A stretch of DNA of 62,538 nucleotides, counting the filler, from Nemertoderma westbladi (taxonomy: Eukaryota > Animalia > Xenacoelomorpha), in assembly GCA_032718475.1 (NCBI GenBank). It is 3 parts of 3 records of this genome, joined end to end, with 100 filler letters (N's around TTAATTAATTAA, not from the genome) between each part and the next. Parts side by side here need not be neighbours in the genome. Positions count along the whole stretch, not along the records: positions 47,782 to 62,538 come from JAUCBJ010008491.1; 2 more parts are not named here. One strand, written 5' to 3'. Shown one piece after another: positions 2,577 through 62,325 of this stretch. Positions within the stretch are counted from its first letter, which is position 1. Each line of letters starts with the position of its first letter. Made by a program: the position numbers and the translations under genes. The notes beneath the pieces were generated by a model that worked only from the letters and a program-made list of their open reading frames with translations, had not been told where the DNA came from and made no database searches.

Positions 2577-2730
2577 TAATGGCAATGAAAACCAGCGATA
2601 AAACATATAACGATTTCATATTAATGTTATTGCAAAACACATAAAATACACTTTTGATGTGTTTTGCAATAACAACTGCAATATTAAAATAAATCGTTAT
2701 ATGTTTTATCGCTGGTTTTCATTGCCATTA
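2577..2730. mobile_element. Small palindromic MITE-like element (long hairpin)
   Basis: taatggcaatgaaaaccagcgataaaacatataacgattt at 2577 is the reverse complement of the end at 2730. An inner inverted repeat (gttattgcaaaacacat/atgtgttttgcaataac) is also present. Confidence 0.7.
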
Positions 2731-13540: not shown

Positions 13541-14397
13541 ACAGTATATCAGTTACTATGAATCATGCACCACAGATCTCAAGAAAAAATGTTCAATATA
13601 AATTAATCAGATTAACGAAAACGTACAAAAAAATAGCACAATATGTAGAGATTCTAAATAAACTATAATTTGATAAATCAGAAGCAATATATTTATATTC
13701 TATAATACTATAACTTTATCAAAATTACTTTCCTATAGATTATAAATACTATTATAATTGCTATATTACTACAGTTCATATTACATGATTGATCGAAGTA
13801 TTACTATAACTTTGTCATAAATATATAATTCATATACATGATTGTTGTACTGACCGGATAATACTGTAGTTCACGAAATACCTATTGTTAATATTTAAAT
13901 TAAACTCGTCGGAATGTAAATAGCTATTACGATTCTAAAAGTTCTAGAACATCAAAGGCACACTTCATAGATAGGCCAAGATCGGTGGACCCAAGGACAG
14001 TCGCAAGGGAAGAATAATACAGATCGGTAGGACGAGAAACAAGTTGGCATTGGCGGAGGCTATGGTATTCCGTTGATATAGAACCGTATTTACATATACA
14101 CGGGATTCTGGAGGGATAGACCTCCAACGTCCAACCTCTACTGGGAGTTGTGTAGAGCCTAGTCGAAACCTTGACCAAGCGATACGGTTCCTTTCATTAA
14201 TACCAGGGATGCGGGTCGTGTATATAGGGTGCGGGTCTAGATCGGGGTTTCATTGCTTATACACAGAGCGGCGGGTAGAAGAAACTTCGGCTAGAAGTTT
14301 TTCTTACAGGACAAATCTCTACCTATCGGGTCAACCATATCGTTAAGGATTTCTGCAACGGCTACCCCCATAGGCGTACGGTTAATAACACACAGAT

Positions 14398-16586: not shown

Positions 16587-16811
16587 ACAGCAAAATAAAA
16601 ATCAGACGTGTTTTCGTGTTTGAAATATTGAAATTTGGATATATTGCTCAATTATTTAACACTAATAAATGGGATATGTTTCATCTTCATTTTTAAATTT
16701 TTTTCATTCCATTTTATTTCACTCGCTGAAATAGTTAAAAGTTAATACCATCTTTATTAAATATTAAGACATATTTCAGGAATGGAATAAAATATTAATT
16801 TCGCTAATTTC

Positions 16812-21830: not shown

Positions 21831-21961
21831 GTTAAAATGCTTCCAATCTTGAGGTCCTTGCTTCTCTTCTAACCATATATGGACCAGAAGTACTTGGGCG
21901 CAGTACTGTACTTTAAACTCTCCATGGGAAATGAAAACTACTATTGTAAACTGTAAACTAC

Positions 21962-22061
21962 NNNNNNNNNNNNNNNNNNNNNNNNNNNNNNNNNNNNNNN
22001 NNNNNTTAATTAATTAANNNNNNNNNNNNNNNNNNNNNNNNNNNNNNNNNNNNNNNNNNNN
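21962..22061. other. Assembly gap with artificial all-frame stop linker
   Basis: 100 bp: 44 N + TTAATTAATTAA (22006-22017) + 44 N. Confidence 0.98.
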
Positions 22062-25670: not shown

Positions 25671-25736
25671 GCAATAACCTCCATCACAGATGATATAGGC
25701 CTACAGATATTACAGCATTATCAGATATACAGATCT

Positions 25737-27841: not shown

Positions 27842-28687
27842 CGGTGGCTGATTGTGGCCAATTATTTCAATTTTTTTAAATGGTCATCTGGGTGAAAAAC
27901 ATTTATCACCCGGGTTAAAAACCTTTTTCACCCAGGTGAAAACTATCTGGAAATCAGATCTCTCCAGGCACCTGAAGACTAAGTTCTTTCGAGCCACAGT
28001 GGAAAGTGTATTTTATACGGGGGTGAGACCTGGACACTGACTATAAATCACTTGAACAACGAATTGATGGTTGCTACGCAAGACTACTAAGGGCAGCCCT
28101 AAACATCAGCTGGAGACAACACATGACAAACGCCGAGCTTTATGGTACAATACCACCCGTATCAACCACCCTCCGTGAACGCAGATTACGATTCAGTGGG
28201 CACTGCTGGCGAAGTAAAGACGAGGTCATACCAGATCTACTTTTCTGGCAACCAACTCATGGAAAGCGTAGACGTGGACGATATATAGATCAACTTGAAA
28301 GGGATACTGAACTTGGGAGAAACGAAATTGCGACAACTATGGAGAATCGGGAAGCCTGGAAGGATCTCATTTCCACTGTCCGAGTCCGCTCGACCTAGTA
28401 GTCACCCAGGTGAAAAACATTTATCGCCCGGGTGAAAAACATGTACCACATCAGAACTCTGAATACATGTGGTCAGAAATAGGCCTAATATAGAAAGCTA
28501 ATTTTGATACATATTCACTCTTGGCGAATTAATATCTCGACCGCTGTTAATAATCAATTAAGGGAAAGGATCAGGTTACAGTGGCATGTAATTCTAACCA
28601 AAACAATAAACGAAAGACAATAGTTAAACATTTAAATATTTTTCACCATGGTGAAAAATGGAAATAATTGGCCGCAATCAGCCACCG
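27842..28687. mobile_element. TA-flanked non-autonomous DNA transposon (MITE) interrupted by an RTE LINE
   Basis: TIR CGGTGGCTGATTG(T/C)GGCCAATTATTTC at both ends, flanked by TA. Internal caccc(a/g)ggtgaaaa repeats. Confidence 0.8.
27943..28401 (+). mobile_element. 5'-truncated RTE-clade LINE
   Basis: IWKSDLSRHLKTKFFRATVESV..RLRFSGHCWR..LFWQPTHGKRRRGR, a TAGTAG tail and a 15-bp TSD tcacccaggtgaaaa (27928-27942 / 28402-28416). Confidence 0.88.
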
Positions 28688-32175: not shown

Positions 32176-32525
32176 ACTTAACTTTTAGGCACTTTCACAC
32201 ACTTTGTTTAATTGCCGCGACTTTTATCTAGCCTTGAATTTTAGTTTGTTTGATCAGACTGCCTGTCTGCTGGTATCTGGTCTGTGCTGTTGTGGTGCGC
32301 TGTTCTGTTCTGTACTGATATAGTTAATACGGAACTAGACTTGAATGTGACTTGATGACAGGATTATATAGGCCCAGTGGATAGTCCGAATCTGCAAACG
32401 AGAAAACAAGGAATCTTTATTTAGCTTGGTTGGTACCGGTACTGGTACAGCAGTAGTACCGCCACTGAAGTTGAAATCACCTGTTCGACTGGATTTGTTA
32501 ACAACAACTGATCAATAATCAGATA

Positions 32526-33032
32526 ATGGCGAGTTACTTGAGAAATATTTCGTTTCTCATTCACAGACTGAATCTATCTCAACCTTTATACCAGCCCACG
32601 TATACACAAACCCGGAGCCTTGCCGGTCGTAAAACTCCCTCGAAACGCCGCATAAGACTCGCCCGAGAACGCCAAGAGGAGGACCGTAAACTAGCGGCGA
32701 CAGCGGCATCGAACCCGTACGCTAAACCTCCGGTAAGGTGCTACCTCTGCGACAACCCACACCTCGAGGTGAACTACAAGAACACCCAACTGTTGAGCCA
32801 GTTCATAGCCCCCCAGACAGGCCGCATAATGGCGGGCCGTGTGACGGGACTGTGTCGGGAGCAACAGGCCCGTGTTCGAACTCATATAATGTGGGCCCGA
32901 CTGTGCGGATACCTCCCTTATATGCACAAGGAAACGGAGTACATGGAGGACAAAGTCTATCACAGCGGCAGTGGTAGATGGACAACATTTACCCGTAAAG
33001 CGCACCCACATAAATTCATTAATAAATCCTAG
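32526..33032 (+). CDS. MRPS18C: Mitochondrial ribosomal protein S18c (bS18m), intronless CDS
   Basis: 168 aa. Arg-rich targeting-like N-terminus, then NPYAKPPVRCYLC..VNYKNTQLLSQFIAPQTGRI..VTGLC..GYLPYMHK, matching the S18c pattern NPY..C.LC..DYKNVQLLSQF..ITGLC. Confidence 0.9.
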   Translation: MASYLRNISFLIHRLNLSQPLYQPTYTQTRSLAGRKTPSKRRIRLARERQEEDRKLAATAASNPYAKPPVRCYLCDNPHLEVNYKNTQLLSQFIAPQTGRIMAGRVTGLCREQQARVRTHIMWARLCGYLPYMHKETEYMEDKVYHSGSGRWTTFTRKAHPHKFINKS

Positions 33033-40224: not shown

Positions 40225-41930
40225 TTATGTATAAAATCGATTAATATTATAGTTAAAAAAGTTAAAATCACTATCACCTCTATCATAATCTTTGACATAG
40301 AATTGTTGCAACTTACTGCATCTTCTCCACACGAAGTCACAAAATTGCTCAATGAAATGCACATCTTCGTTATAGCTGTTCTCATCCGTGACACGACAAC
40401 TTATTACTCCTTTCATATTACCGGCATTGAAAATGTTCTCGAAATCAACAAATGATTGCTCTTCCAGACGGTGGGGTCCAACTAAACCAAATTCAACTAT
40501 AAGTGTAGTCAGAGAGAATAGAGATCGCAATGCCATTACCACACTTCCGTAGCTACATCTCTTCATAACCAGTGTCGAAACTGACTCTGTTAATGGGGTG
40601 CTCTCGACTCTTAATCCGCAATGATGTAGAGCCAATGATTGTAGATTCGGAAACAGTTTAACAGATCTACCAATGACAGGAGACTTCCATGAAGCTGCAA
40701 TTTCAAATACATTATTCCGGATAAAACAACGCCGTTTTGGGCGGCTGTGGTAATGATGTTATGAACAACGTACGAAAACTTATCACAAAGAGTCAACGAA
40801 GATAGTTTCTGGAATTTATTCATTACATTGAATAAACTTTGATCACGTAGCAGATCTGCTTTCGACGGATGGTTCCGCCAATTTAACTTGAGGCTTTCCA
40901 ATGAATCTTTGGAAATAGGAATAACAAACTCATTAAGGGTATCAACCATAGACACACTGGTGTGGAGACCGCGAAGAATATATCGGTTGTAAAGATTGAA
41001 ATTGGCGAAGTTTAATCCGATTTTATGAAGGTCGCATTCCGTCAGGTTGAATTGTTGGTCCCTAGTTAATATGTTGAGTAATTCCATAGACATGTTTGTG
41101 ACTATGGAAACATTGGGATATTTTAAAAGGAAGTTATCAAATCTTTTAATCATTTCCCCTGTAGAAAAGTTGGGAATGTTAATGCTTATTCTTTCCAGCT
41201 TTTTCATTTCGGGCAGGAAATTGGTAGAAAATAAGCTGTAATCAGTAGAACAATAACTCGCGACGTGGAGATTTACCAGATTAGGGCAACAGCGAGCAAT
41301 ACCTTTTACAGTACTGGAACTGAGACTCGTACCAGAGATGCTTAAGGAAGTGAGTTGAGGGAACACAACGGATTGCGCTAAAACTTCATTCAAGTCTGTA
41401 AAACCGGATGTATCGAGAGTCTCCAATGCAGCGGCCATCTTAGGAAGCCAACTTACTAAAACCGGGATGATATCAGAAGGGAACTCGTCTAGAAAGAAGT
41501 CATCAATAATAACGTTGACAGGCCACTGAGGCAGCATACAATCCCAAGGGAAGATACATGAATACGTTTCCATAATACCTTTCAAGGTTGGTGTGTCTGT
41601 ATGCTCCATTTTAGATTCATTACTTATCGATAATTCGTTATGTAACAACTTCAGCTGGTTGAATGCGATGATGTAGGAATGAAGATAGAACTTCCATAGA
41701 TTGTTGCGGAGTTTGGGAGCCAACCTTTTCAGCCACTGTGAGACAGATGTCCAATGGTCACTCTCTGCACTATCAGAATAATTGTTGTCCCATTTCTTTC
41801 GTTCAGCTGTTACAATACTGTTAACCAACAATCGAGTCAGATTGACAATACCGATTTCTTGGAGCGACAATAATCGACAGTTCTCTCGGAGTATAACGGG
41901 TCCTTCCCCTAAACATTTACTGGAGTACAT
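40225..41930 (-). CDS. Intronless leucine-rich-repeat protein with one apparent 1-nt frameshift near 40651-40653 (sequencing error or young pseudogene)
   Basis: The 439-aa ORF has LRRs (LETLDTSG, FPQLTSLSISGT, CCPNLVNLHVA, FQKLSSLTL). The next frame continues as FPNLQSLALHHCGL..LFSLTTLIV..CSKLQQFYV to the stop at 40225. The N-terminal LLSLQEIG is BC-box-like (inference). Confidence 0.75.
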
Positions 41931-44599
41931 CGTTAGATAATTATGCAGCTTCTGGGGGTAGATTTAACGCAGAAGTAGGCCTACTTACCGCTACGTACGT
42001 GTACATAGGTTTTTAAATAATTTTTTAATTATAGGTACAGGTAGTTTGATTTATTTATCTGTTTATCGTATCTTTACCATATAATAAGTGTTGACATCGC
42101 CTGGAGTGGAGTTTGGAACTGGTTTATTCCCAAACCCCGTACATCCATACGGTCTCAGCACTTATCCTTATACCTTATCTACTGTTACTGTTCCTACTGT
42201 TACTGCTACTGTTATTGTTCCACAGTTTGGTGTAGTATGATATGATAGTACAGTACAGATGTAATCTATCTAACTTAGGCGATGCTTTGAAGACGACACC
42301 GATGAAGCACATCTCTGCGCCAGCCCCTCCAGCGTATGCAATCCGACATAGCACATCCATTTTAGCACCAGTCGAAATGCTGCGCCGAACGTGTTCGGCG
42401 ACCTTATATAACTTTCAAAAGGACAGACCTTACCTTACTACAGCTTGACAACGCATTCAGATCTGAATCATTCTAAAATCTAACGGCAGCCAAGCCAAGT
42501 ACAACTGTAGTACAATCGCAGTCGTCCTACCTCTGACAACGTATTCCAGTAATAATGCTCAACTAGCCATTCATTAAATGAATCTAATATATAAATAACG
42601 TCGTGAAAATAATGTTCCATTTAAAAATAAAATTACTGTACGTATTACATGTTAAATAACGTGGAACATATTTTCACTGTGATCTCGATTCTTTATTAAC
42701 CTCGCTCTGCGCTCGGTAAATAAAATACCGAGTATAGCAGTCAAAATAATATTCTACATTATACTACCATGCAATAAATAATTACTACTTTTACCGCATT
42801 GTAAAGGATAATGACACTAAATATACTGTTGCTAGGTAATCGAATCCCCACAAAAGAGTTGGCAAGGGTTATCCAATATCCATCACTATCGATGGGAGAA
42901 CTGAAGTCGACTGAAAAGTGAAATCCTGGTATTCTTCAAATGGGCGCTTTGGTGTGGATGAGCTATAACATCATGAACATGAAAAATTACCCCCAGATCG
43001 CACGTATCCCCTGGGTGAACATTTCAAAGAACACATTTAGGACTTCGGCTGTAATAATATCACCTATTAAATTACTAACGTATTCCAGTAAATAATAATA
43101 TTACAAATACTAGAGTATGTAAGAGAATGTGCAACACGGTAGAACTCCAACTCGCGGGATGTTGCATTGATAACAGATAGAATTAATACACATTCGTTCA
43201 CGTTCGTTAATGTTCTACACCTGGTAAATATAATAGCCAAAGCGATGTTGTCAATAACAACCTCAATAATATCAAACAATAACTGGAAAACAAGCAGCGC
43301 TTTATTTCCCCAGAATTTCCCCATTATTTGAGTAAGTAACGATAATTGTACAAAGGGGCCATAAATAAGGGATATAAATCTAATTATCTTAGGCCGATAT
43401 GTAAATGTCAATATCCCTCCTCCATATCGGTTAAATCCGAAATAAGTTTAATTTTAAATAAAAGCACTCACGAGTGTTGGAATACTTTAATATTAATTAA
43501 ATATTTTTATAAGGTACCTTTTTGGGCTGGTGGACTCTTCTATCGGGAATACACTTTTTAGATTTAGCTCTTTGGGGCATCTTTCTTTGCCATTTATTCA
43601 ATTGTTTTATATTTAAAATGTATAATTAATCTGTTTTTATCTTTAATTTAACAAGATTTTAATATAGCCGCTGGAGGCGTAAGTCCGATGATAAATTAAA
43701 ATTAAAAAAATATGAAATTACCAAAAAATACCAAAGTCAGCAGTTTATGTGAAACTTTAGCAAGTTTATAATAAATTAATGTTCCTAAACGACATGAAAG
43801 TGTGATCACACTCAGCCTTATGTTGTAACTTGTAATTGCCGTCAGACATGAGACCTGTTCGAAATCTTGAGCACGACAACCCGAACGGAACTGTTAGTAC
43901 ATTCCCTGTAAGCCCGTATCATTGTCAGGAATAATAATATTGCGATAATCAATCGACTGATAACACAGGATTCAAGGGGCCTATTTTGCCACCAGACGCC
44001 CCACCGCAGCGCAAGTTTGATTTATGTTTTGATGTTACTAGCTAAATTTGAGTTACGATTCTAAAGTTGCACAAATTGTTTGTTAGTAAACGTCATTGAA
44101 GTTAAAAGCGCGAACAGAAGGGTAGCACGAACTTAGTTCCTATTGAAACGAATTTAGTTCCAAAATAAATTTTATAAAGCGAACTTGGTTCTAATCGGGG
44201 CGAACTTAGTTATAATCCCAGAATATCAAAACGAATTTGGTTCCAGTGGTGGCGAATTTGGTTCCAATGTTTCAATCTGGGGCGAGCCACGAAGTAGGCT
44301 ACGCCTTTGAAGAAATATAGTATCAATATTCAGTATGTCTTTATCTTTCACTAAATTTCGGTTCATTAGATCATGAAAATTCTGGTCGATCCTCCACTGT
44401 AACTATACGTTAGTTACCTTTACCTTATATGGGATGGTAAACAGTTTAAAGCAATTGGATAACTCAACTCGCATATGGCATACTTTATATTATACTAATA
44501 TTAATGATATTTACTATCTTGTATGACAACCTCGTACTAAACTCCTGTCTGTCTTACTATCTGCAAATAGTAAGTGAAAGCCAAACAGACAATAATTAC

Positions 44600-44773: not shown

Positions 44774-46088
44774 AGTTCCAAAACGTTTTTCTTGAATTCC
44801 AAAACGTACCTGGTTAAGTTCCAAAACGTTTTTCTTGAGTTCCAAAACGTACCTGGTTAAGTTCCAAAACGTTTTTCTTGAGTTCCAAAACGTACCTGGT
44901 TAAGTTCCAAAACGTTTTTCTTGAATTCCAAAACGTACCTGGTTAAGTTCCAAAACGTTTTTCTTGAGTTCCAAAACGTACCTGGTTAAGTTCCAAAACG
45001 TTTTTCTTGAGTTCCAAAACGTACCTGGTTGAGTTCCAAAACGTACCTGTTTAAGTCCCAAAACGTACCGGTACCTGGTTAAATTCCAAAACGTACCTTG
45101 TTAAGTCCCAAAACGTACCTGGTTAAGTTCCAAAACGTACCTGGTTAAGTTCCAAAACGTACCGGTACCTGGTTAAATTCCAAAACGTACCTTGTTAAGT
45201 CCCAAAACGTACCTGGTTAAGTTCCAAAACGTACCGGGTTGAGTTCCAAAACGTACCTGTTTAAGTCCCAAAACGTACCGGTACCTGGTTAAATTCCAAA
45301 ACGTACCTTGTTAAGTCCCAAAACGTACCTGGTTAAGTTCCAAAACGTACCTGGTTAAGTTCCAAAACGTACCTGGTCAAGTTCCAAGACGTACCTGGTT
45401 AAGTTCCAAAACGTTTTTCTTAAGTTCCAAAACGTACCTGGTTGAGTTCCAAAACGTACCTGGTTAAGTCCCAAAACGTACCTGGTTAAGTTCCAAAACG
45501 TACCTGTTTAAGTCCCAAAACGTACCGGTACCTGATTAAATTCCAAAACGTACCTTGTTAAGTCCCAAAACGTACCTGGTCAAGTTCCAAAACGTACCTG
45601 GTTAAGTTCCAAAACGTACCTGTTAAGTTCCAAAACGTACCTTGTTAAGTCCCAAAACGTACCTGGTTAAGTCCCAAAACGTACCTGGTTAAGTTCCAAA
45701 ACGTACCTGGTTAAGTTCCAAAACGTACCTGGTTAAGTTCCAAAACGTACCTGGTTAAGTTCCAAGACGTACCTGGTCAAGTCCCAAAACGTACCTGGTT
45801 AAGTTCCAAAACGTACCTGGTTAAGTTCCAAAACGTACCTGGTTGAGTTCCAAAACGTACCTGGTTAAGTCCCAAAACGTACCTGGTTGAGTTCCAAAAC
45901 GTACCTGTTTAAGTCCCAAAACGTACCTGGTTAAGTCCCAAAACGTACCTGGTTAATTTCCAAAACGTACCTGGTTAGGTTTCAAAAACTACCTGGTTAG
46001 GTTCCAAAACGTACCTGGTTAAGTTCCAAAACGTACCTGGTTAAGTTCCAAAACGTACCTGGTTAAGTTCCAAAACGTACCTGGTTAA
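44774..46088 (-). repeat. 22-bp tandem array made of the ZRSR2 exon A splice-donor junction, ~60 units
   Basis: Minus-strand unit TTAACCAG|GTACGTTTTGGAAC: the last 8 exon nt plus the first 14 intron nt. The first unit is the real donor at 46081/46080. Confidence 0.93.
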
Positions 46089-46201: not shown

Positions 46202-47681
46202 CTAAAAAAAAACGTAAAAAAAAGCGTTAGAAAATTTCGACGAATTACATATGGTAAATAATTATGTGGTAATATTATTTAGTGCTACAAAACATCGCCT
46301 GAGTTTATTTTCACAATGCTCGGGAATAACATAACGTTCTCATAATGATTATGGATGGGCTAATGTTTATCAATGGGCCAAAAATGGTTCCTTAGTGGCC
46401 AAAAATGACATCCATTTTCGCACCACAGTTTTCGAACAATGGGGTTTGTGCGCGAAAAAAATGTTGGGTTAGAAACAATTAAATAAGGGGTAACACGGTG
46501 CCCTGAATCAAGAGGCGGGGTCTGTTTTTTGTAAAAACACGAGGACACGGTCTAAATGGCGGGTTTAAGTAAGCCCGGGAAACCTATTTTGAAAATCGAC
46601 TGTGATTGGATGCTACATATTTAACGTCACTACGCAGTGGTCCGATAATTTTATATATTGGTTTCTATGGACGGTGATTTTAGATCCATTCAATTACAAA
46701 TTTAATCTCAATTATTTCACACGTGGTTTATATCAATTGAAAGCTGAGAGTGTTGTGCGTCTTTTACCACTACAAATTAATTAAATTCATGATGAGGAAC
46801 ATTGATAAAATGCTGTGTGCAAATTTAATTATTTATTACAAATAATATTATTTAAATAAATTATGTTTACGTTTTCATAAATTCTGGCCCAAATTATGTG
46901 CGGCTATTTCATTTTAAATGCGTCGATTTTGCCCTGCAACAAATAATTATTATTAATAATTAAATAATTCAATATAATTAATAATTTTTTAATAATAAAC
47001 ATTAATAATTTAATAATTCAAATTTAATTGCGTCAACCGTAATTTCTAACAAGACGTGATAAAGACAATGATATATTATTATCGATACATTTTTTTTATC
47101 GAAATTGCAAATTGTCCCGTTCACGGCCGAATATCACGGTAACAAGCAACCATGTTACTGGTAAACCTATAAAGCCTTCCAATCTTGCCTATGCTTAATA
47201 ACCATAATAACGAACCTGCCTATTAATAGGCCAGGGTAGTTATTGTCAAGAGTTGAGCTGTTCAAAAACACGATGTGGTTATGTGTGTGTGTATGTATAT
47301 ATGTATAACCATCCAATATCTCAAAAACTCAAGCAGGTACGCAAAAATTTTAATAACAAACTCTACATAAATTTTGGTTGCGCACAAGACTGTATATTTT
47401 TTATGACGTTTCGATCACAGGGTCACTGAAAAATAGCGGCTTTGAAAATTTAAAGTCAAATTTCACCGATTTCAACTCGTCGAGTATGCACCAACTTTTC
47501 TATTTGGGCTATTCAGTCATTTGAGCAACATATTTGAGCCTCAGAATCTTGTCAAATATCGCCAATCTCGCACAGAACGTCGCCAAAATTTGTTAGTCCG
47601 GCAAAAAAACGCACAAATTCGTCTAAAAGAGTAAATTATTGGTTGCAGAATAATATGATTCAACTAGAAAAGCCAGTAAGC

Positions 47682-47781
47682 NNNNNNNNNNNNNNNNNNN
47701 NNNNNNNNNNNNNNNNNNNNNNNNNTTAATTAATTAANNNNNNNNNNNNNNNNNNNNNNNNNNNNNNNNNNNNNNNNNNNN
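47682..47781. other. Assembly gap with artificial all-frame stop linker
   Basis: 44 N + TTAATTAATTAA (47726-47737) + 44 N. Confidence 0.98.
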
Positions 47782-50700
47782 GAATATAATACGTCGTAGT
47801 GTGTTTTTAGGCTATAAGCGGCGTTTTTTCATGTTACTTCCTACAGAACCAGTTAAAAGGTTATAACTTTCGAGGAGACAGTGCCAGTGACTTGAGAAAG
47901 TGTGAGACAATTGGGGTTACTATTCCCAATTTGTACACAGTGTTACAACTCAGAAAACACAGGGCTTCCAGAGTTATTTAACTATATTCGAATATATTAC
48001 GTCGTAGTGTGTTTTTAGGCTATAAGCGGCGTTTTTTCATGTTACTTCCTACAGAACCAGTTAAAAGGTTATAACTTTCGACGAGACAGTGCCAGTGACT
48101 TGAGAAAGTGTGAGACAATTGGGGTTACTATTCCCAATTTGTACACAGTGTTACAACTCAGAAAACACAGGGCTTCCAGAGTTATTTAACTATATTCGAA
48201 TATATTACGTCGTAGTGTGTTTTTAGGCTATAAGCGGCGTTTTTTCATGTCACTTCCTACAGAACCAGTTAAAAGGTTATAACTTTCGACGAGACAGTGC
48301 CAGTGACTTGAGAAAGTGTGAGACAATTGGGGTTACTATTCCCAATTTGTACACAGTGTTACAACTCAGAAAACACAGGGCTTCCAGAGTTATTTAACTA
48401 TATTCGAATATATTACGTCGTAGTGTGTTTTTAGGCTATAAGCGGCGTTTTTTCATGTTACTTCCTACAGAACCAGTTAAAAGGTTATAACTTTCGACGA
48501 GACAGTGCCAGTGACTTGAGAAAGTGTGAGACAATTGGGGTTACTATTCCCAATTTGTACACAGTGTTACAACTCAGAAAACACAGGGCTTCCAGAGTTA
48601 TTTAACTATATTCGAATACATTACGTCGTAGTGTGTTTTTAGGCTATAAGCGGCGTTTTTTCATGTTACTTCCTACAGAACCAGTTAAAAGGTTATAACT
48701 TTCGACGAGACAGTGCCAGTGACTTGAGAAAGTGTGAGATAATTGGGGTTACTATTCCCAATTTGTACACAGTGTTACAACTCAGAAAACACAGGGCTTC
48801 CAGAGTTATTTAACTATATTCGAATATAATACGTCGTAGTGTTTTTAGGCTATAAGCGGCGTTTTTTCATGTTACTACCTACAGAACCAGTTAAAAGGTT
48901 ATAACTTTCGACGAGACAGTGCCAGTGACTTGAGAAAGTGTGAGACAATTGGGGTTACTATTCCCAATTTGTACACAGTGTTACAACTCAGAAAACACAG
49001 GGCTTCCAGAGTTATTTAACTATATTCGAATATATTACGTCGTAGTGTGTTTTTAGGCTATAAGCGGCGTTTTTTCATGTTACTTCCTACAGAACCAGTT
49101 AAAAGGTTATAACTTTCGAGGAGACAGTGCCAGTGACTTGAGAAAGTGTGAGACAATTGGGGTTACTATTCCCAATTTGTACACAGTGTTACAACTCAGA
49201 AAACACAGGGCTTCCAGAGTTATTTAACTATATTCGAATATATTACGTCGTAGTGTGTTTTTAGGCTATAAGCGGCGTTTTTTCATGTTACTTCCTACAG
49301 AACCAGTTAAAAGGTTATAACTTTCGACGAGACAGTGCCAGTGACTTGAGAAAGTGTGAGACAATTGGGGTTACTATTCCCAATTTGTACACAGTGTTAC
49401 AACTCAGAAAACACAGGGCTTCCAGAGTTATTTAACTATATTCGAATATATTACGTCGTAGTGTGTTTTTAGGCTATAAGCGGCGTTTTTTCATGTTACT
49501 TCCTACAGAACCAGTTAAAAGGTTATAACTTTCGACGAGACAGTGCCAGTGACTTGAGAAAGTGTGAGACAATTGGGGTTACTATTCCCAATTTGTACAC
49601 AGTGTTACAACTCAGAAAACACAGGGCTTCCAGAGTTATTTAACTATATTCGAATACAATACGTCGTAGTGTGTTTTTAGGCTATAAGCGGCGTTTTTTC
49701 ATGTTACTTCCTACAGAACCAGTTAAAAGGTTATAACTTTCGACGAGACAGTGCCAGTGACTTGAGAAAGTGTGAGATAATTGGGGTTACTATTCCCAAT
49801 TTGTACACAGTGTTACAACTCAGAAAACACAGGGCTTCCAGAGTTATTTAACTATATTCGAATATAATACGTCGTAGTGTGTTTTTAGGCTATAAGCGGC
49901 GTTTTTTCATGTTACTTCCTACAGAACCAGTTAAAAGGTTATAACTTTCGAGGAGACAGTGCCAGTGACTTGAGAAAGTGTGAGACAATTGGGGTTACTA
50001 TTCCCAATTTGTACACAGTGTTACAACTCAGAAAACACAGGGCTTCCAGAGTTATTTAACTATATTCGAATATATTACGTCGTAGTGTGTTTTTAGGCTA
50101 TAAGCGGCGTTTTTTCATGTTACTTCCTACAGAACCAGTTAAAAGGTTATAACTTTCGAGGAGACAGTGCCAGTGACTTGAGAAAGTGTGAGACAATTGG
50201 GGTTACTATTCCCAATTTGTACACAGTGTTACAACTCAGAAAACACAGGGCTTCCAGAGTTATTTAACTATATTCGAATATAATACGTCGTAGTGTGTTT
50301 TTAGGCTATAAGCGGCGTTTTTTCATGTTACTTCCTACAGAACCAGTTAAAAGGTTATAACTTTCGAGGAGACAGTGCCAGTGACTTGAGAAAGTGTGAG
50401 ACAATTGGGGTTACTATTCCCAATTTGTACACAGTGTTACAACTCAGAAAACACAGGGCTTCCAGAGTTATTTAACTATATTCGAATATATTACGTCGTA
50501 GTGTGTTTTTAGGCTATAAGCGGCGTTTTTTCATGTTACTTCCTACAGAACCAGTTAAAAGGTTATAACTTTCGAGGAGACAGTGCCAGTGACTTGAGAA
50601 AGTGTGAGACAATTGGGGTTACTATTCCCAATTTGTACACAGTGTTACAACTCAGAAAACACAGGGCTTCCAGAGTTATTTAACTATATTCGAATATAAT

Positions 50701-51159
50701 ACGTCGTAGTGTGTTTTTAGGCTATAAGCGGCGTTTTTTCATGTTACTTCCTACAGAACCAGTTAAAAGGTTATAACTTTCGAGGAGACAGTGCCAGTGA
50801 CTTGAGAAAGTGTGAGACAATTGGGGTTACTATTCCCAATTTGTACACAGTGTTACAACTCAGAAAACACAGGGCTTCCAGAGTTATTTAACTATATTCG
50901 AATATATTACGTCGTAGTGTGTTTTTAGGCTATAAGCGGCGTTTTTTCATGTTACTTCCTACAGAACCAGTTAAAAGGTTATAACTTTCGACGAGACAGT
51001 GCCAGTGACTTGAGAAAGTGTGAGACAATTGGGGTTACTATTCCCAATTTGTACACAGTGTTACAACTCAGAAAACACAGGGCTTCCAGAGTTATTTAAC
51101 TATATTCGAATATATTACGTCGTAGTGTGTTTTTAGGCTATAAGCGGCGTTTTTTCATG
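47782..51159. repeat. 208-bp satellite, ~16 near-identical copies, truncated by the gap
   Basis: Period measured from 47782 to 47990. Internal inverted repeats aaaggttataacttt and aattggg..cccaatt. Confidence 0.95.
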
Positions 51160-51270
51160 ATCTAGCTAATGTCATGGGTGAAAGGGAGTTGTGGCGGTGC
51201 AATTTTGTTGACAAGCCGGCACAGCATTCTTAAAAATGCAGCTGCAATGCAGCATGCCGATCCTAGTAGT
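51158..51270 (+). mobile_element. RTE LINE 3'-end fragment
   Basis: Nearly identical to 60058-60170 (gatctagc..ttcttaaaaatgcagctgcaatgcagcatgccgatcctagtagt). Confidence 0.9.
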
Positions 51271-53168
51271 GTATGGCTGGCCGCGAGATCTGGAGGCGCT
51301 ATGTTGCTGGGTCCGCCGACACTGTGTATGGCTGGCCGCAAGATCTGGAGGCGCTATGTTGCTGGGTGCGCCAGCACTGTGTATGGCTGGCCGCGAGATC
51401 TGGGGGCGCTATGTTGCTGGGACCGCCGGCACTGTGTGTGGCTGACCGTGAGATCTGGGGGCGCTATGTTCAATTCAATTCAATTCAATATATATTTTCC
51501 AAATGCTTAACAAATGCTTAACAAATGATACAATAAATTGCACAATAATTACTGTACAATATATATTGTAAATACGTATTATAAAGTAAATTATAAAGTA
51601 AATGGGGGATTTAGCACAGGACAGGACACCAGCGAATAGCTGTAATAGCTAGTAGCGTGCTGGTGCCCTGGGGGGGGGGGGGGGGGGGGGGGGGGTACGT
51701 TACGTTTGCTACTAGTGTTACATGATATAATTTTAATATACATAGATATGAGTATTGAAATTTATATTTATTACTTCGTGCAACACCAATCGTAATACGT
51801 GGACGGACGCTACACTGCCGCCAAGGAAAAACAGGATTTGTATAATAAAACTAATTTAAATTTAAATACTGGATGATTTAATTTTTCGAAGTTGATAATA
51901 ATGGAGGAGAATATTGCAAGGTAATTCCAAATATCTATATAGTTTCAAGTAGATATCTCTTAAGATTTTTAGCAAATGTTGATTTGGTTTTCTTTTGTTT
52001 AATTATACGTGGGATAGAATTCCACACGGACGGGCCCCGAAAACTGATGGTTTGTTGCTGGGTCCGCCGGCACTGTGTATGGCTGACCGCGAGATCTGGG
52101 GGCACTATGTTGCTGGGACCACCGGCACTGTGTATGGCTGACCGTGAGATCTGGAGGCGCTATGTTGCTGGGTCCGCCGACACTGTGTATGGCTGGCCGC
52201 GAGATCTGGAGGCGCTATGTTGCTGGGTGCGCCGGCACTGTGTATGGCTGGCCGCGAGATCTGGGGGCGCTATGTTGCTGGGACCGCCGGCACTGTGTAT
52301 GGCTGACCGCGAGATCTGGGGGCACTATGTTGCTGGGACCACCGGCACTGTGTATGGCTGACCGTGAGATCTGGAGGCGCTATGTTGCTGGGACCACCGG
52401 CACTGTGTATGGCTGACCGTGAGATCTGGAGGCGCTATGTTGCTGGGTCCACCGACACTGTGTATGGCTGGCCGCGAGATCTGGAGGCGCTATGTTGCTG
52501 GGTGCGCCGGCACTGTGTATGGCTGGCCGCGAGATCTGGGGGCGCTATGTTGCTGGTACCGCCGGCACTGTGTGTGGCTGACCGTGAGATCTGGGGGCGC
52601 TATGTTGCTGGGTCCGCCGGCACTGTGTATGGCTGGCCGCGAGATCTGGAGGCGCTATGTTGCTGGGTGCGCCGACACTGTGTGTGGCTGACCGTGAGAT
52701 CTGGGGGCTGCTATGTTGCTGGGTCCGCCGGCACTGTGTGTGGCTGACCGCGAGATCTGGAGGCACTATGATGCTGGGTGCGCCGACACTGTGTGTGGCT
52801 GACCGTGAGATCTGGGGGCACTATGTTGCTGGGTGCGCCGACACTGTGTATGGCTGGCCGCGAGATCTGGAGGCGCTATGATGCTGGGTGCGCCGACACT
52901 GTGTGTGGCTGACCGTGAGATCTGGGGGCTGCTATGTTGCTGGGTCCGCCGGCACTGTGTATGGCTGGCCGCGAGATCTGGAGGCGCTATGATGCTGGGT
53001 GCGCCGACACTGTGTGTGGCTGACCGTGAGATCTGGGGGCACTATGTTGCTGGGTGCGCCGACACTGTGTATGGCTGGCCGCGAGATCTGGGGGCGCTAT
53101 GTTGCTGGGTCCGCCGGCACTGTGTGTGGCTGACCGCGAGATCTGGAGGCGCTATGTTGCTGGGACCG
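51271..53168. repeat. 55-bp GC-rich minisatellite interrupted by a LINE tail
   Basis: Unit GCGAGATCTGGAGGCGCTATGTTGCTGGGTCCGCCGACACTGTGTATGGCTGGCC. Confidence 0.93.
51471..52052 (-). mobile_element. 5'-truncated CR1/L2-type LINE 3' end
   Basis: Minus-strand SFRGPSVWNSIPRIIKQKKTKSTFAKNLKRYLLETI* (stop 51935-51937), then a 3'UTR and an (ATTGA)n tail. Confidence 0.75.
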
Positions 53169-53312
53169 CATGCACTGCACCAATACAATCCGATTACCAT
53201 GCATTCCTATATTATAACTTATTTTTCTGTACTAAATCTTCTAACTGTATTAAATATTTAAACTCTTACTCTTTAAACCTCTTACTGTTCGATTGTTTAA
53301 TAGTGTACTTAC

Positions 53313-53604
53313 TGACAGCCACATAATGGATAACATATTATCCTTATCTTCTAGTGGACATTTCATCGCCAATGATTCTCCAACATATGCATCCGTGACT
53401 GTAGCTTTTTCCTCCAGCTTTTCTATCTTAAATATATTGTAGGATATAATGTTGGAAAAGGAAATTCCATATTGATTCTCTGCTTTGCATTGGTATTCGG
53501 AGATTCCCTCTTTATTCTTATCTTCGTTCAACTTAAAATAATCACCGCCGCCGGTAGTAATATCTGTAGCCGACAATTCAACCCCATTCCTAAGTAAGGT
53601 CACA
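53313..53604 (-). CDS. Ig-superfamily cell-surface/secreted protein (L1CAM/neuroglian/contactin-like), exon 3
   Basis: ttttgtttcag|T GTG..TCA|gtaagt, 292 bp. VTLLRNGVEL..EYQCKAENQYGISFSN..VGESLAMKCP..SIMWLS covers the end of Ig1 and the start of Ig2. Confidence 0.85.
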
Positions 53605-56600
53605 CTGAAACAAAATAATACATCTTCAACAACCACCGAATATCCTAAGTAAGGTCACAATGAAATAAAATAATACATCTTCAACAACCACCGAATATCC
53701 TAAGTAAGGTCACACTGAAATAAAATAATACATCTTCAACAACCACCGAATATCCTAAGTAAGGTAACACTGAAATAAAATAATACAACTTCAACAACCA
53801 CCGAATATCCTAAGTAAGGTCACACTGAAACAAAATAATACATCTTCAACAACCACCGAATATCCTAAGTAAGGTCACACTGAAACAAAATAATACATCT
53901 TCAACAACCACCGAATATCCTAAGTAAGGTCACACTGAAATAAAATAATACATCTTCAACAACCAAAGAATATCCTAAGTAAGGTCACACTGAAATAAAA
54001 TAATACATCTTCAACAACCACCGAATATCCTAAGTAAGGTCACAATGAAATAAAATAATACATCTTCAACAACCAAAGAATATCCTAAGTAAGGTCACAA
54101 TGAAATAAAATAATACATCTTCAACAACCACCGAATATCCTAAGTAAGGTCACACTGAAATAAAATAATACATCTTCAACAACCACCGAATATCCTAAGT
54201 AAGGTCACAATGAAATAAAATAATACATCTTCAACAACCACCGAATATCCTAAGTAAGGTCACACTGAAACAAAATAATACATCTTCAACAACCACCGAA
54301 TATCCTAAGTAAGGTCACACTGAAATAAAATAATACATCTTCAACAACCAAAGAATATCCTAAGTAAGGTCACACTGAAATAAAATAATACATCTTCAAC
54401 AACCACCGAATATCCTAAGTAAGGTCACAATGAAATAAAATAATACATCTTCAACAACCAAAGAATATCCTAAGTAAGGTCACAATGAAATAAAATAATA
54501 CATCTTCAACAACCACCGAATATCCTAAGTAAGGTCACACTGAAATAAAATAATACATCTTCAACAACCACCGAATATCCTAAGTAAGGTCACAATGAAA
54601 TAAAATAATACATCTTCAACAACCAAAGAATATCCTAAGTAAGGTCACAATGAAATAAAATAATACATCTTCAACAACCACCGAATATCCTAAGTAAGGT
54701 CACAATGAAATAAAATAATACATCTTCAACAACCACCGAATATCCTAAGTAAGGTCACAATGAAATAAAATAATACATCTTCAACAACCACCGAATATCC
54801 TAAGTAAGGTCACACTGAAATAAAATAATACATCTTCAACAACCAAAGAATATCCTAAGTAAGGTCACACTGAAATAAAATAATACATCTTCAACAACCA
54901 CCGAATATCCTAAGTAAGGTCACAATGAAATAAAATAATACATCTTCAACAACCACCGAATATCCTAAGTAAGGTCACAATGAAATAAAATAATACATCT
55001 TCAACAACCAAAGAATATCCTAAGTAAGGTCACAATGAAATAAAATAATACATCTTCAACAACCACCGAATATCCTAAGTAAGGTCACACTGAAATAAAA
55101 TAATACATCTTCAACAACCACCGAATATCCTAAGTAAGGTCACAATGAAATAAAATAATACATCTTCAACAACCAAAGAATATCCTAAGTAAGGTCACAA
55201 TGAAATAAAATAATACATCTTCAACAACCACCGAATATCCTAAGTAAGGTCACAATGAAATAAAATAATACATCTTCAACAACCACCGAATATCCTAAGT
55301 AAGGTCACAATGAAATAAAATAATACATCTTCAACAACCACCGAATATCCTAAGTAAGGTCACACTGAAATAAAATAATACATCTTCAACAACCACCGAA
55401 TATCCTAAGTAAGGTCACACTGAAATAAAATAATACATCTTCAACAACCAAAGAATATCCTAAGTAAGGTCACAATGAAATAAAATAATACATCTTCAAC
55501 AACCAAAGAATATCCTAAGTAAGGTCACACTGAAATAAAATAATACATCTTCAACAACCACCGAATATCCTAAGTAAGGTCACACTGAAATAAAATAATA
55601 CATCTTCAACAACCACCGAATATCCTAAGTAAGGTCACAATGAAATAAAATAATACATCTTCAACAACCACCGAATATCCTAAGTAAGGTCACAATGAAA
55701 TAAAATAATACATCTTCAACAACCAAAGAATATCCTAAGTAAGGTCACACTGAAATAAAATAATACATCTTCAACAACCACCGAATATCCTAAGTAAGGT
55801 CACAATGAAATAAAATAATACATCTTCAACAACCACCGAATATCCTAAGTAAGGTCACAATGAAATAAAATAATACATCTTCAACATCCAAAGAATATCC
55901 TAAGTAAGGTCACACTGAAATAAAATAATACATCTTCAACAACCACCGAATATCCTAAGTAAGGTCACAATGAAATAAAATAATACATCTTCAACAACCA
56001 AAGAATATCCTAAGTAAGGTCACACTGAAATAAAATAATACATCTTCAACAACCACCGAATATCCTAAGTAAGGTCACACTGAAATAAAATAATACATCT
56101 TCAACAACCAAAGAATATCCTAAGTAAGGTCACAATGAAATAAAATAATACATCTTCAACAACCAAAGAATATCCTAAGTAAGGTCACACTGAAATAAAA
56201 TAATACATCTTCAACAACCACCGAATATCCTAAGTAAGGTCACACTGAAATAAAATAATACATCTTCAACAACCACCGAATATCCTAAGTAAGGTCACAA
56301 TGAAATAAAATAATACATCTTCAACAACCAAAGAATATCCTAAGTAAGGTCACACTGAAATAAAATAATACATCTTCAACAACCACCGAATATCCTAAGT
56401 AAGGTCACACTGAAATAAAATAATACATCTTCAACAACCACCGAATATCCTAAGTAAGGTCACAATGAAATAAAATAATACATCTTCAACAACCACCGAA
56501 TATCCTAAGTAAGGTCACAATGAAATAAAATAATACATCTTCAACAACCAAAGAATATCCTAAGTAAGGTCACACTGAAATAAAATAATACATCTTCAAC

Positions 56601-58822
56601 AACCACCGAATATCCTAAGTAAGGTCACAATGAAATAAAATAATACATCTTCAACAACCAAAGAATATCCTAAGTAAGGTCACACTGAAATAAAATAATA
56701 CATCTTCAACAACCACCGAATATCCTAAGTAAGGTCACACTGAAATAAAATAATACATCTTCAACAACCAAAGAATATCCTAAGTAAGGTCACAATGAAA
56801 TAAAATAATACATCTTCAACAACCACCGAATATCCTAAGTAAGGTCACAATGAAATAAAATAATAGATCTTCAACAACCACCGAATATCCTAAGTAAGGT
56901 CACAATGAAATAAAATAATACATCTTCAACAACCACCGAATATCCTAAGTAAGGTCACACTGAAATAAAATAATACATCTTCAACAACCAAAGAATATCC
57001 TAAGTAAGGTCACACTGAAATAAAATAATACATCTTCAACAACCACCGAATATCCTAAGTAAGGTCACACTGAAATAAAATAATACATCTTCAACAACCA
57101 CCGAATATCCTAAGTAAGGTCACACTGAAATAAAATAATACATCTTCAACAACCACCGAATATCCTAAGTAAGGTCACAATGAAATAAAATAATAGATCT
57201 TCAACAACCACCGAATATCCTAAGTAAGGTCACAATGAAATAAAATAATACATCTTCAACAACCACCGAATATCCTAAGTAAGGTCACACTGAAATAAAA
57301 TAATACATCTTCAACAACCAAAGAATATCCTAAGTAAGGTCACACTGAAATAAAATAATACATCTTCAACAACCACCGAATATCCTAAGTAAGGTCACAC
57401 TGAAATAAAATAATACATCTTCAACAACCACCGAATATCCTAAGTAAGGTCACACTGAAATAAAATAATACATCTTCAACAACCAAAGAATATCCTAAGT
57501 AAGGTCACAATGAAATAAAATAATACATCTTCAACAACCACCGAATATCCTAAGTAAGGTCACAATGAAATAAAATAATACATCTTCAACAACCACCGAA
57601 TATCCTAAGTAAGGTCACAATGAAATAAAATAATAGATCTTCAACAACCAAAGAATATCCTAAGTAAGGTCACACTGAAATAAAATAATACATCTTCAAC
57701 AACCACCGAATATCCTAAGTAAGGTCACACTGAAATAAAATAATACATCTTCAACAACCACCGAATATCCTAAGTAAGGTCACAATGAAATAAAATAATA
57801 GATCTTCAACAACCACCGAATATCCTAAGTAAGGTCACAATGAAATAAAATAATAGATCTTCAACAACCAAAGAATATCCTAAGTAAGGTCACACTGAAA
57901 TAAAATAATACATCTTCAACAACCACCGAATATCCTAAGTAAGGTCACAATGAAATAAAATAATAGATCTTCAACAACCACCGAATATCCTAAGTAAGGT
58001 CACAATGAAATAAAATAATAGATCTTCAACAACCAAAGAATATCCTAAGTAAGGTCACACTGAAATAAAATAATACATCTTCAACAACCACCGAATATCC
58101 TAAGTAAGGTCACAATGAAATAAAATAATAGATCTTCAACAACCACCGAATATCCTAAGTAAGGTCACAATGAAATAAAATAATACATCTTCAACAACCA
58201 CCGAATATCCTAAGTAAGGTCACACTGAAATAAAATAATACATCTTCAACAACCACCGAATATCCTAAGTAAGGTCACACTGAAATAAAATAATACATCT
58301 TCAACAACCAAAGAATATCCTAAGTAAGGTCACAATGAAATAAAATAATACATCTTCAACAACCACCGAATATCCTAAGTAAGGTCACAATGAAATAAAA
58401 TAATAGATCTTCAACAACCACCGAATATCCTAAGTAAGGTCACAATGAAATAAAATAATACATCTTCAACAACCACCGAATATCCTAAGTAAGGTCACAC
58501 TGAAATAAAATAATACATCTTCAACAACCAAAGAATATCCTAAGTAAGGTCACACTGAAATAAAATAATACATCTTCAACAACCAAAGAATATCCTAAGT
58601 AAGGTCACACTGAAATAAAATAATACATCTTCAACAACCACCGAATATCCTAAGTAAGGTCACACTGAAATAAAATAATACATCTTCAACAACCACCGAA
58701 TATCCTAAGTAAGGTCACACTGAAATAAAATAATACATCTTCAACAACCAAAGAATATCCTAAGTAAGGTCACAATGAAATAAAATAATACATCTTTAAC
58801 AACCAAAAAATATCCTAAGTAA
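53588..58822 (-). repeat. 55-bp tandem array made of the exon-3 splice-acceptor junction, ~95 copies
   Basis: Minus-strand unit tattcggtggttgttgaagatgtattattttatttcAG|TGTGACCTTACTTAGGA: 38 intron nt plus 17 exon nt. The last unit is the real acceptor. Confidence 0.95.
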
Positions 58823-58829
58823 TCTAAGA

Positions 58830-60170
58830 TCTCGATTGCTGCAAAGCTATACAATAGAATTCTATTAAATCGCATCAGGGATCCCATTGAGAGACTGCTC
58901 CGTGGAAATCAGAATGGGTTCCGTAAAGGTCGTGGGACCATGGAGCCCATTTTGGCACTTAGAAGGATAATTGAAGAGTTATCAAAAAAGAAAGACAGGC
59001 ATCTGGCTGTTATCTTTGTTGACTTCTTCAAGGCCTTTGATTCAATCTCTCGCTCACGTATGTTCAGCATACTTTCATTATATTGGATTCCTGATGAAAT
59101 TATTGCAGCAATAAGATCAGTATACGATGGTTCGACAACATTTGTGTCTACTGTTGACGGTGACACAGAACCATTTGAAGTGTCATGGGGCGTCCTCCAG
59201 GGAGACACACTTGCACCATTCTTGTTCATAATTGTTGTTGACTATGTTTTACGCATGTCCTTAGATCATCATAATGATGATGGGGTGATGATAACTTCAC
59301 CATCTGGCTCCAGAAGTCGAGGAAATCCTGCCAAGTACCTAACTGATCTAGACTTTGCTGATGACTTAGGAGTACTCTCAGAATCACTAGAGGGAGCCCA
59401 ACGGCTCCTCAGTTCATTAGAGCATGCTGCTTCTAGTGTTGTTCTTTTTATTAACTCCAGAAAGACCAAAATTTTGACAGTTAACTTTGAAAGTCCTCAG
59501 CAAGTCTCTGATCGGATGAGCATAAGCTCAAAAGATGGTATGCTTGAGCATGTGGATGACTTCTGTTACCTGGGATCATGGATCCGGAAGTCAGGTGAGG
59601 ACCTTCGAATACGTAAGGGGAAGGCATGGGCAGCCTTGAATAGGCTTTCCAGGATTTGGAAGTCACCGAGAATTAATCGGAAACTTAAGGTCCGATTATT
59701 TAGAGCAGCAGTAGTTCCAGTACTCCTCTATGGGATTCCATGCTGGGCTCTAACTGCTGAGGACACCAAATCTCTGGATGGCACATTCACAAAAATGCTA
59801 CGCCGGGTTCATTGTGTCAAGTACAATGCACACATCTCCAACCAGACACTATATAACATTGGAGGTGTCTCATTGGTTCCCCCTAGCTTGACTCTAGAAC
59901 AAAATCGCCTCCGCTTTGCAGGACATTGCTTTCGCCGTGAGGACCAGCCAGTGCATAATCTTGTACTTTGGCAGCCTCATGGAGTGAATAAGCATGGTGG
60001 ACAGCCCATGACTTTCTTGAGACGCATCTTAAAGGACACTGGCCTTGAAGATGCGGATGATCTAGCAAATGCCATGGGTGATAGGGAGTTGTGGCGGTGC
60101 AATTTTGTCGATAAGCCGGCACAGCATTCTTAAAAATGCAGCTGCAATGCAGCATGCCGATCCTAGTAGT
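58830..60170 (+). mobile_element. 5'-truncated RTE-clade LINE with an uninterrupted RT reading frame
   Basis: SIAAKLYNRILLNRI..QNGFRKGR, FVDFFKAFDSI, GVLQGDTLAPFLF, LDFADD, FCYLGSW, RLRFAGHC. Stop at 60133, short 3'UTR and TAGTAGT tail. No TSD. Confidence 0.95.
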
Positions 60171-60552
60171 GACTCACTTGCTACGTTCGTTGCTGTTGTA
60201 GAGTAAGCTCAGGGCTCTGTGGCAACCCTAGAGTGCAGTGCTTCCTACGTTCGGTGTGGTTGTAGAGTAAGCTCAGGGCTCTGTTGCAACCCTAGAGTGT
60301 AGTAGTGACTCACTTGCTACGTTCGGTGCGGTTGTAGAGTAAGCTCAGGGCCTTGTTGCAACCCTAGAGTGCAGTAGTGACTCACTTGCTACGTTCGATG
60401 CGGTTGTAGAGTAAGCTCAGGGCTCTGTTGCAACCCTAGAGTGCAGTAGTGACTCACTTGCTACGTTCAGTGCGGTTGTAGAGTAAGCTCAGGGCGTTGT
60501 TGCGACCCTAGAGTGCAGTAGTGACTCACTTGCTACTTTCGGTGCGGTTGTA
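60165..60552 (-). repeat. 72-bp tandem array made of the exon-2 splice-donor junction, ~5 copies
   Basis: Minus-strand unit TACAACCGCACCGAA(A/C)GTAGCAA|GTGAGTcactactgcactctaggg..cttactc: 23 exon nt plus 49 intron nt. Confidence 0.92.
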
Positions 60553-60659
60553 ATCACACCCGACTCTTTCTTTCATTGTTATTTTATATTCATTATTGTA
60601 TATGAGAGCCGATGACCTCCAGTGATCCGGTACGATTGATACTTTCACTGGCGCCTCTC
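60530..60659 (-). CDS. Ig-superfamily protein, exon 2
   Basis: ttttctttccag|GA..AA|gtgagt, 130 bp. EAPVKVSIVPDHW..ERVGCDYNRTESS. Phase 1/2 joins exon 1 and exon 3 in frame and supplies the Ig1 B-strand Cys. Confidence 0.82.
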
Positions 60660-61144: not shown

Positions 61145-61566
61145 CTTCCAATAATTCTCAAACATCTCGGGCGTAGGCCTATCGCTATTTGTATTCAATC
61201 AGTTGAAGAACACGGTTAGAAGGCAAACAGATTAACTTAAACTTTGGTATAGACCCCACGTTGGTATTTGGTACGTTGATAATGACAACAAATTATGGTG
61301 GACTTTATTTAAATGTTATTTTTTAATTAGTTTGGCTTTTCTTGATGCCATAAAAAATTACGGTGCAATAAATAGTTTATAATCACCAGTGAACATTTCA
61401 AAACACCAGAACCAGAAAACACAACCATTAGACTTCTAACGGACTTCTAACTGCATGTATGTGATTTTCAACAAAATTACGCTTCAACAACACCATGACT
61501 TTCGCAAGAAAGGCCAGTGTCCTTTAAGAAGCTTCTCAAGAAAGTGAATAAGTTCTAAATAAGCAA

Positions 61567-62325
61567 TTAAATCGTATCAGAGATCCCATTGAGAGACTGC
61601 TCCGTGGAAATCAGAATGGGTTCCGTAAAGGTCGGGGGACCATGGAGCCCATTTTGGCACTTAGACGGATAATTGAAGAGTTATCAAAAAAGAAAGACAG
61701 GCATCTGGCTGTATCTTTGTTGACCTCTTCAAGGTCTTTGATTCAGTCTCTCGCTCACGTATGTGCAGCATACTTTCATTATATGGGATTCCTGATGAAA
61801 TTATTGCAGCAATCAGATCAGTATACGATGGTTCGACAACATTTGTGTCTACTGTTGACGGTGACACAGAACCATTTGAAGTGTTATGGGGCGTCCTCCA
61901 GGGAGACACACTTGCACCATTCTTGTTCATAATTGTGGCATACTCCTCCTATACGGGAGCCAATGATGGGCTGCTTGATGATTCCATGGCCTGGTTCACT
62001 GTGTCAAGTACAATGCACACATCTACAACCAGCCACTATATAGTATTGGATGTATCCAATTATTGATCCCCTAAGCTTGAGACTTGAACAGAACCGCCTC
62101 CGCTTTGCAGGATAATTATTTCGCCGCGTGGAACAGCTTGTGCACAATCTTATGCTTTTTCAGGCTCATTGAGACAATAAGATGGTGGATCTGGATAGAC
62201 CCCGATTTTCTTTAGACGCCTCCTCTTAAAGGACCACTGGCTTTGAAGATGGGGATAATCTCGCGAATGTGAAGGGGGATAATAGTGAGTTGTGGCGGCG
62301 CAAATCTGTCGACAAGCCGACATAG
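61567..62325 (+). mobile_element. Degraded, internally deleted copy of the same RTE family
   Basis: Close match to 58866-59236, then jumps to sequence resembling 59790-60120. Frameshifts and stops present. Confidence 0.9.

Follow-up and report, generated by a model that had tools for sequence, protein, structure and literature searches.

A mirage-type minisatellite repeats the predicted acceptor of an immunoglobulin-domain intron in Nemertoderma westbladi

Introduction

Tandem repeats that carry copies of the splice sites they adjoin have been described in a small number of animal genes. In amphioxus, mirage minisatellites have been reported at Adh3, troponin C, the globins BflGb6 and BflGb9, and PGBD5, where 'many, but not all' units retain the splice signal and where reverse transcription PCR (RT-PCR) gave a normal mRNA (PMC3087553, PMC3902484). 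Two human loci provide further points of comparison. In CBS c.844_845ins68, 52 intron and 16 exon nucleotides (nt) are duplicated, the downstream copy is the acceptor in use, and splicing removes the additional sequence (PMC7490669). In F7 intron 7 (IVS7), the first unit of a 37-bp variable number tandem repeat (VNTR) lies across the exon–intron boundary, and minigene experiments found that the outermost of 5-9 identical donors is the only one used (PMC1557585). Here we analyse a stretch of 62,538 nt (the window) from the xenacoelomorph Nemertoderma westbladi (GCA_032718475.1), composed of three joined parts, in which a 55-nt repeat occupies most of an intron of a predicted immunoglobulin (Ig) domain gene and copies the 3' splice site at its end. 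A literature search, with most subscription journals outside its scope, returned no report of mirages in invertebrates other than amphioxus.

Results

The array upstream of the Ig-like exon is a head-to-tail tandem repeat of minisatellite size, identified by Tandem Repeats Finder as a 55-nt repeat with 95.2 copies and 96% matches at 53588-58822, and divided by script into 95 units of exactly 55 nt. Read on the minus strand, each unit joins 39 nt of intron end, comprising a T-rich tract that closes on the acceptor hexamer, to the 16 nt that begin the following exon, and the last unit reaches 17 exon nt owing to a shared A. An initial annotation of this DNA had described a 3' splice site repeated about 95 times, each copy a U-rich tract with AG and the first 17 exon nt, filling 5.2 kb of a 6.9-kb intron. 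The composition of the unit and its extent (5,218 of the 6,925 nt between 60530 and 53604) are borne out here, and so is the number of repeats. The number of splice sites is not, as the splice signal is copied in many units and not in all: TTTCAG is intact in 49 of 95 units, namely 48 decoys and the real site with its AG ending at 53605, and the other 46 read TTTCAT, including the unit immediately preceding the real acceptor. A second acceptor-like TAG lies within the exon-derived part of all 95 units, preceded by 7-8 T in 17 nt as against 11 for the unit CAG. The array holds 144 YAGs (Y, pyrimidine). Among 1,573 non-array 55-nt windows only 19 contain a YAG with at least 11 T in the preceding 17 nt, a threshold chosen post hoc with the unit already known. 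The array is thus real and its association with the acceptor exceeds chance, with half the intact acceptors first annotated. Judged by eye and with no statistical test, the inner units are alike and the edge units more diverged: changes seen in no other unit mark the one next to the retroelement, one variant (F) is confined to the last 13 units, and the variants follow one another non-periodically, some of them limited to one end of the array.

The exon into which the last unit extends by 16-17 nt, exon B, is open and Ig-like as predicted from its sequence. Its annotation as an Ig-domain exon is upheld by the ESM Atlas (feature score 0.95; 10 of the 10 best matches in the Ig clan), by comparison with the PDB, where titin (E 2.6e-06), contactin and DSCAM are matched, and by a protein search with 54 distant matches at 20-41% identity, of which the five best were inspected and are all multi-Ig proteins; the annotated GT at 53312-53311 also stands. 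Pfam recovers Ig_2 weakly (E 0.022, below the cut-off), and a separate protein search with exon B gave no match at E 0.01 among 122 candidates. Joined to exon A through a phase-2 intron, exon B completes 140 amino acids without a stop, in which Cys34 and Cys82 are 48 residues apart, a spacing that fits an Ig-like domain. Both exons are open and in frame with canonical splice sites, and with its Ig sequence and its paired Cys and Trp kept, the host gene has the features of the immunoglobulin superfamily. Sequencing runs X1 and X2 also contain a related copy, about 89% identical, that covers part of exon B together with the donor (window 53276-53414); 12 of its 14 listed differences fall at first or second codon positions, none creates a stop, and the Cys, the Trp and the donor are retained. 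The host may come from a fast-evolving Ig receptor family.

The 6,925-nt intron contains no unique sequence at all and resolves into 359 nt of donor array, 1,343 nt of retroelement, 5 nt of filler and 5,218 nt of acceptor array (Table 1). Neither the 72-nt donor array (60165-60552) nor the antisense retroelement (58828-60170) featured in the initial annotation. Within the donor array GTGAGT stands at 60529 (the real donor), 60457, 60385, 60313 and 60177, and use of a later one would lead to a stop after one codon. The retroelement frame matches RVT_1 (E 4e-23) and presumably belongs to an RTE-like element of a very abundant family, with a summed contig depth of mostly 1.3-2.8 million in X1 versus 26.8 for the exon A contig. 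Both of its junctions fall inside repeat units, which implies that both arrays are older than its placement; any unique middle of the intron may then have been lost through an insertion accompanied by deletion or through recombination of two copies. An origin of both arrays from the retroelement is disfavoured by these same junctions and by another insertion in the window that has the same GC-rich array on both sides, although the order of events is not proven.

Contigs from the sequencing runs bear on whether the array exists outside the assembly. Runs X1, X2, X3 and X5 were searched with exon B, and X1-X4 with the retroelement and exon A, the contigs being of DNA type. Among the runs listed as containing this sequence none was of RNA, a result with no bearing on expression. 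Exon B is present without difference in X1 (depth 36-45) and X2 (depth 9.5), and the repeat unit has a summed depth far above it, at 1,144-1,523 in X1 and 2,620-3,354 in X2; the repeat-to-exon ratio differs several-fold between the two, contig depth being no measure of copy number. Since the unit is found at high summed depth in DNA contigs of two samples, it was not invented by the assembly. Two unit variants in X2, at depths of 778 and 776, fit the 49:46 split without showing it. X2 may be the source of the assembly itself, as neither exon contig differs; X3 gave one repeat contig and X5 nothing. Among the matches listed from X1-X5, none joined the two sides of the intron or represented an allele whose intron has unique sequence in its middle, an absence that contigs cannot show.

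Table 1. Coordinates of the predicted Ig gene, its intron and a second donor-side array in the window
Feature	Position	Strand	Remarks
Exon A (predicted), 130 nt	60530..60659	-	Bears first Cys of the Ig domain completed by exon B
Donor mirage array, about 5 x 72 nt	60165..60552	-	Unit of 22 exon + 50 intron nt
Predicted phase-2 intron, 6,925 nt	53605..60529	-	Last exon A base 60530, first exon B base 53604
5'-truncated non-LTR (long terminal repeat) retrotransposon	58828..60170	+	Antisense to Ig gene; open reverse transcriptase (RT) frame of 436 amino acids; TAG-repeat tail
Filler between array and retroelement, 5 nt	58823..58827	.	Resembles part of array unit
Acceptor mirage array, 95 x 55 nt	53588..58822	-	10 unit variants
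AG of last unit, predicted real acceptor	53605..53606	-	Sole CAG opening onto an uninterrupted frame
Exon B (predicted), 292 nt	53313..53604	-	Covers the C-terminal part of one Ig domain and the beginning of the next; purine-/GAA-rich
Donor GTAAGT ending exon B	53307..53312	-	GT at 53312-53311
Second mirage, 22 nt x 58	44797..46088	-	Repeats donor at 46080 of CCCH zinc-finger gene

The real acceptor is set apart from its copies by several measures. From the downstream donor at 53312 the exon would be 292 nt long with the real CAG, 402 nt with the nearest CAG decoy and 5,407 nt with the farthest, and long introns show a preference for the sites closest across the exon (PMC9225289). Within the array no 9-mer agrees with the donor consensus at more than 5 of 9 positions, the two real donors agreeing at 8 and 6, and GAA occurs 4.8 times per 100 nt in exon B versus 1.8 in the array. 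All decoys stop early, after 11 codons for 48 of 48 CAG decoys and after 6 for 95 of 95 TAG decoys; errors would consequently be cheap to remove and frame multiples of 55 nt immaterial, which leaves the annotated expectation that decoys would usually shift the frame beside the point. The accompanying argument that a first-AG scanning rule would pick a decoy started from a wrong premise. Scanning begins at the branch point (PMC1431707), and it therefore predicts nothing for this array, in which candidate branch sites recur in each unit (CTTAC at -49, TTGAA at -25) and upstream of which the same intron has 125 AGs. In RNA folding, neither the real acceptor nor either of two decoy acceptors showed an unusual structure (z +1.18, +0.46 and +1.12), and the donor showed a weak one (z -1.80); masking of the decoys by RNA structure was set aside on these scores.

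Tandem arrays account for 30% of the window (18,938 nt in 12 segments), most of them without an evident tie to an exon. The second mirage-type array, of 22 nt, contains 52 donor-like sites, 41 of them CAG/GTACGT (the slash marks the junction), and fills 1,284 of the 1,364 nt of a zinc-finger gene intron; splicing between the outer sites of that intron would keep the reading frame. The array content of the window and this second gene's donor array fit a genome-wide repeat process. The gene itself matches zf-CCCH (E 0.0055) and has candidate exons near 46080, 44716-44600, 34328 and 29600-29320; we take it to be ZRSR2-like, a label that goes further than the zf-CCCH match confirms. Inside its predicted introns lie an intronless ribosomal protein S18 gene (32502-33032, plus strand) and a leucine-rich repeat (LRR) gene in two overlapping frames (40225-41963, minus strand). 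Three more arrays resemble splice sites: 43 nt x 35.6 at 15063-16587 (minus strand), whose unit is CTAAT, a T-rich tract and CAG or CAA, and which is acceptor-like with an AG-destroying variant and no adjoining coding exon seen; 208 nt x 16 at 47782-51159, 99% identical and ending at a gap, with acceptor-like tracts on both strands and no exon recognised; and 46 nt x 33 at 3632-5144 (minus strand), with CAG/GTACAC in most units and no adjoining coding exon recognised.

Mobile-element remains are likewise frequent. A retroelement 3' stub at 51157-51271 (plus strand), 95.7% identical to the intron copy, joins the 208-nt array to a GC-rich 55-nt array and may mark a deletion, like the long copy that joins unlike arrays in the Ig intron. 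A 580-nt insertion at 51470-52053, with a GAATT-repeat end, splits the GC-rich array (51269-51470 and 52053-53177); a short frame within it had no Pfam match and is presumably the C-terminus of a CR1/L2-type RT. Broken pieces lie at 130-2250, 7280-8530, 12100-13560 and 20170-21240 on the minus strand and at 28027-28398 and 61510-62325 on the plus strand, and include a DUF4371 transposase that we take to be of hAT type, an integrase core (rve), further RT fragments and a stretch we assume to be piggyBac-like. An intronless FUT8 at 23826-25700 (minus strand) has a GC content of about 54% against a background of 39%, and 49-55% identity to the best 120 of 975 matches, which come from many bilaterian phyla. 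Two 100-nt N-run joins, at about 21960-22060 and 47680-47780, each with a 12-nt linker bearing stops in six frames, may cut genes.

Discussion

The analysis presented here favours a reading in which the acceptor array is a mirage minisatellite that arose from local duplication and unequal exchange, and in which the last copy alone would be spliced, by exon definition. We regard this as probable. Of all the CAG acceptors, the last copy lies closest to the donor downstream, and its use is predicted on that ground. The Ig gene would be transcribed and spliced from 60530 to 53604, with U1 at donor 53312 and the enhancer-like, purine-rich sequence of exon B stabilising U2AF and U2 on the last unit and no other; nonsense-mediated decay would clear any rare decoy products, and the array would likely have no function. 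The initial annotation had proposed either strict exon definition by donor 53312 or stepwise removal, and the former is likely and is the ordinary rule for long introns; the latter is left without AG/GT sites.

Several observations weigh against this reading. The 48 intact decoys far exceed the 3-9 units of the published loci compared, so the silence of those loci need not carry over. A TAG 15 nt inside exon B is 277 nt from donor 53312 and in frame; it is a possible minor acceptor, and being nearer to the donor it indicates that proximity alone does not fix the site. Alignments to Ig proteins that cross the exon A–exon B junction number six stretches, a count attained in 5 of 40 trials with exon A shuffled, and among the 54 distant matches of exon B there was no close relative able to show that junction. 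No further exon was recognised, by eye and in the list of open reading frames, between 53312 and the N-run gap near 47780, and with two exons found in the window the gene may be a cut fragment. The differences in the related copy of exon B show no purifying selection; they read as neutral or diversifying change and offer no proof of function.

A first alternative holds the Ig gene to be a fragment, dead or cut, with no acceptor choice to make and arrays that grew free of selection, which we consider unlikely. The lack of a recognised exon between 53312 and the gap, the retroelement stub at 51157-51271 joining two unlike arrays, which would fit a deletion, the concentration of changes in the related copy at first and second codon positions and the distance of the 54 protein matches all agree with such a fate. 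They are countered by two exons that remain open, in frame and canonically bounded with the Ig Cys, Cys and Trp kept, and more weakly, given 14 changes, by a related copy that is stop-free in the compared part and keeps its Cys, Trp and donor; later exons may moreover lie in or beyond the gap, since long introns and nested genes occur in the window.

A second alternative would give the array a role: decoy use would scale with the number of CAG units, so that array length and the CAG:CAT ratio tune receptor output through nonsense-mediated decay. The 48 decoys do share the tract of the real site and are transcribed first, an early stop follows from each, one of the few common unit variants destroys the AG (46 of 95), and, relative to the exon, X1 and X2 show summed repeat depths that are several-fold apart. 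The array, however, offers no donor partner, no aberrant mRNA appeared in the amphioxus RT-PCR (PMC3087553, PMC3902484), the outermost site is the only one used at F7 (PMC1557585), and depth is no copy number. A variant that strikes the AG is expected by chance at roughly 1 in 7, a figure obtained from about four recurring variant events over 55 nt with one hitting the AG, and selection favouring the CAT variant is thus unsupported. We consider decoy-dependent tuning distinctly improbable, and its fullest form, in which an intron made of copies of its own splice sites and one retroelement is a dial of variable length, with pre-mRNA loss of a fast-evolving Ig receptor set by how many units carry CAG and with CAG-to-CAT changes switching units off, is if anything a slimmer prospect.

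An assembly artefact, with a true array much shorter than 95 units, is very improbable: the gaps do adjoin other arrays and no contig crosses the whole array, but ten unit variants in an order that by eye is non-periodic, some at one end only, and the high summed unit depth in two samples speak for its length. Coding tandem exon duplication or intron gain by the repeat units was rejected, as stops follow all decoys and the unit has no donor. Stepwise removal of the intron by recursive splicing along the array, for which 144 YAGs in series might be invoked, is barely credible, since ratchet points are AG/GT and the decoys read CAG/TG or TAG/GA with no GT following, the best donor-like site scores 5/9, and a decoy, once spliced to, would contribute 16 exon nt without supplying a new donor.

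If splicing does use the last copy of the mirage, as we think probable, the locus is another member of this group, larger than the published loci compared, and notable for its size and for arrays at both ends of one intron. Forty-eight near-identical acceptors ahead of the real one would make it a natural test of the strictness of exon definition in an invertebrate, and little new biology would follow unless RNA shows decoy use tracking array length. For annotators, the locus is a warning that exon edges are places where arrays occur in this genome.

By its sequence-level features the array falls within the mirage class, a class already described. It shares with the amphioxus loci a tandem unit that spans the exon boundary, the existence of donor and acceptor types, a unit within the reported 10-160 nt, a splice signal in part of the units and edge units that diverge more than inner ones. 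It differs in its 95 units, against 3-6 at BflGb6, and in having arrays at both intron ends with only a retroelement between them. Recursive-splicing ratchet points are likewise acceptor-like sites within a long intron, and they differ from the decoys here, which are not AG/GT. Among human loci, the F7 IVS7 VNTR is the counterpart of the 72-nt donor array and differs in being confined to the donor side with fewer units, whereas CBS c.844_845ins68 shares with the acceptor array the duplication of an intron end with the first 16 exon bases, carried there by one extra 68-nt copy and here by 94 copies of 55 nt.

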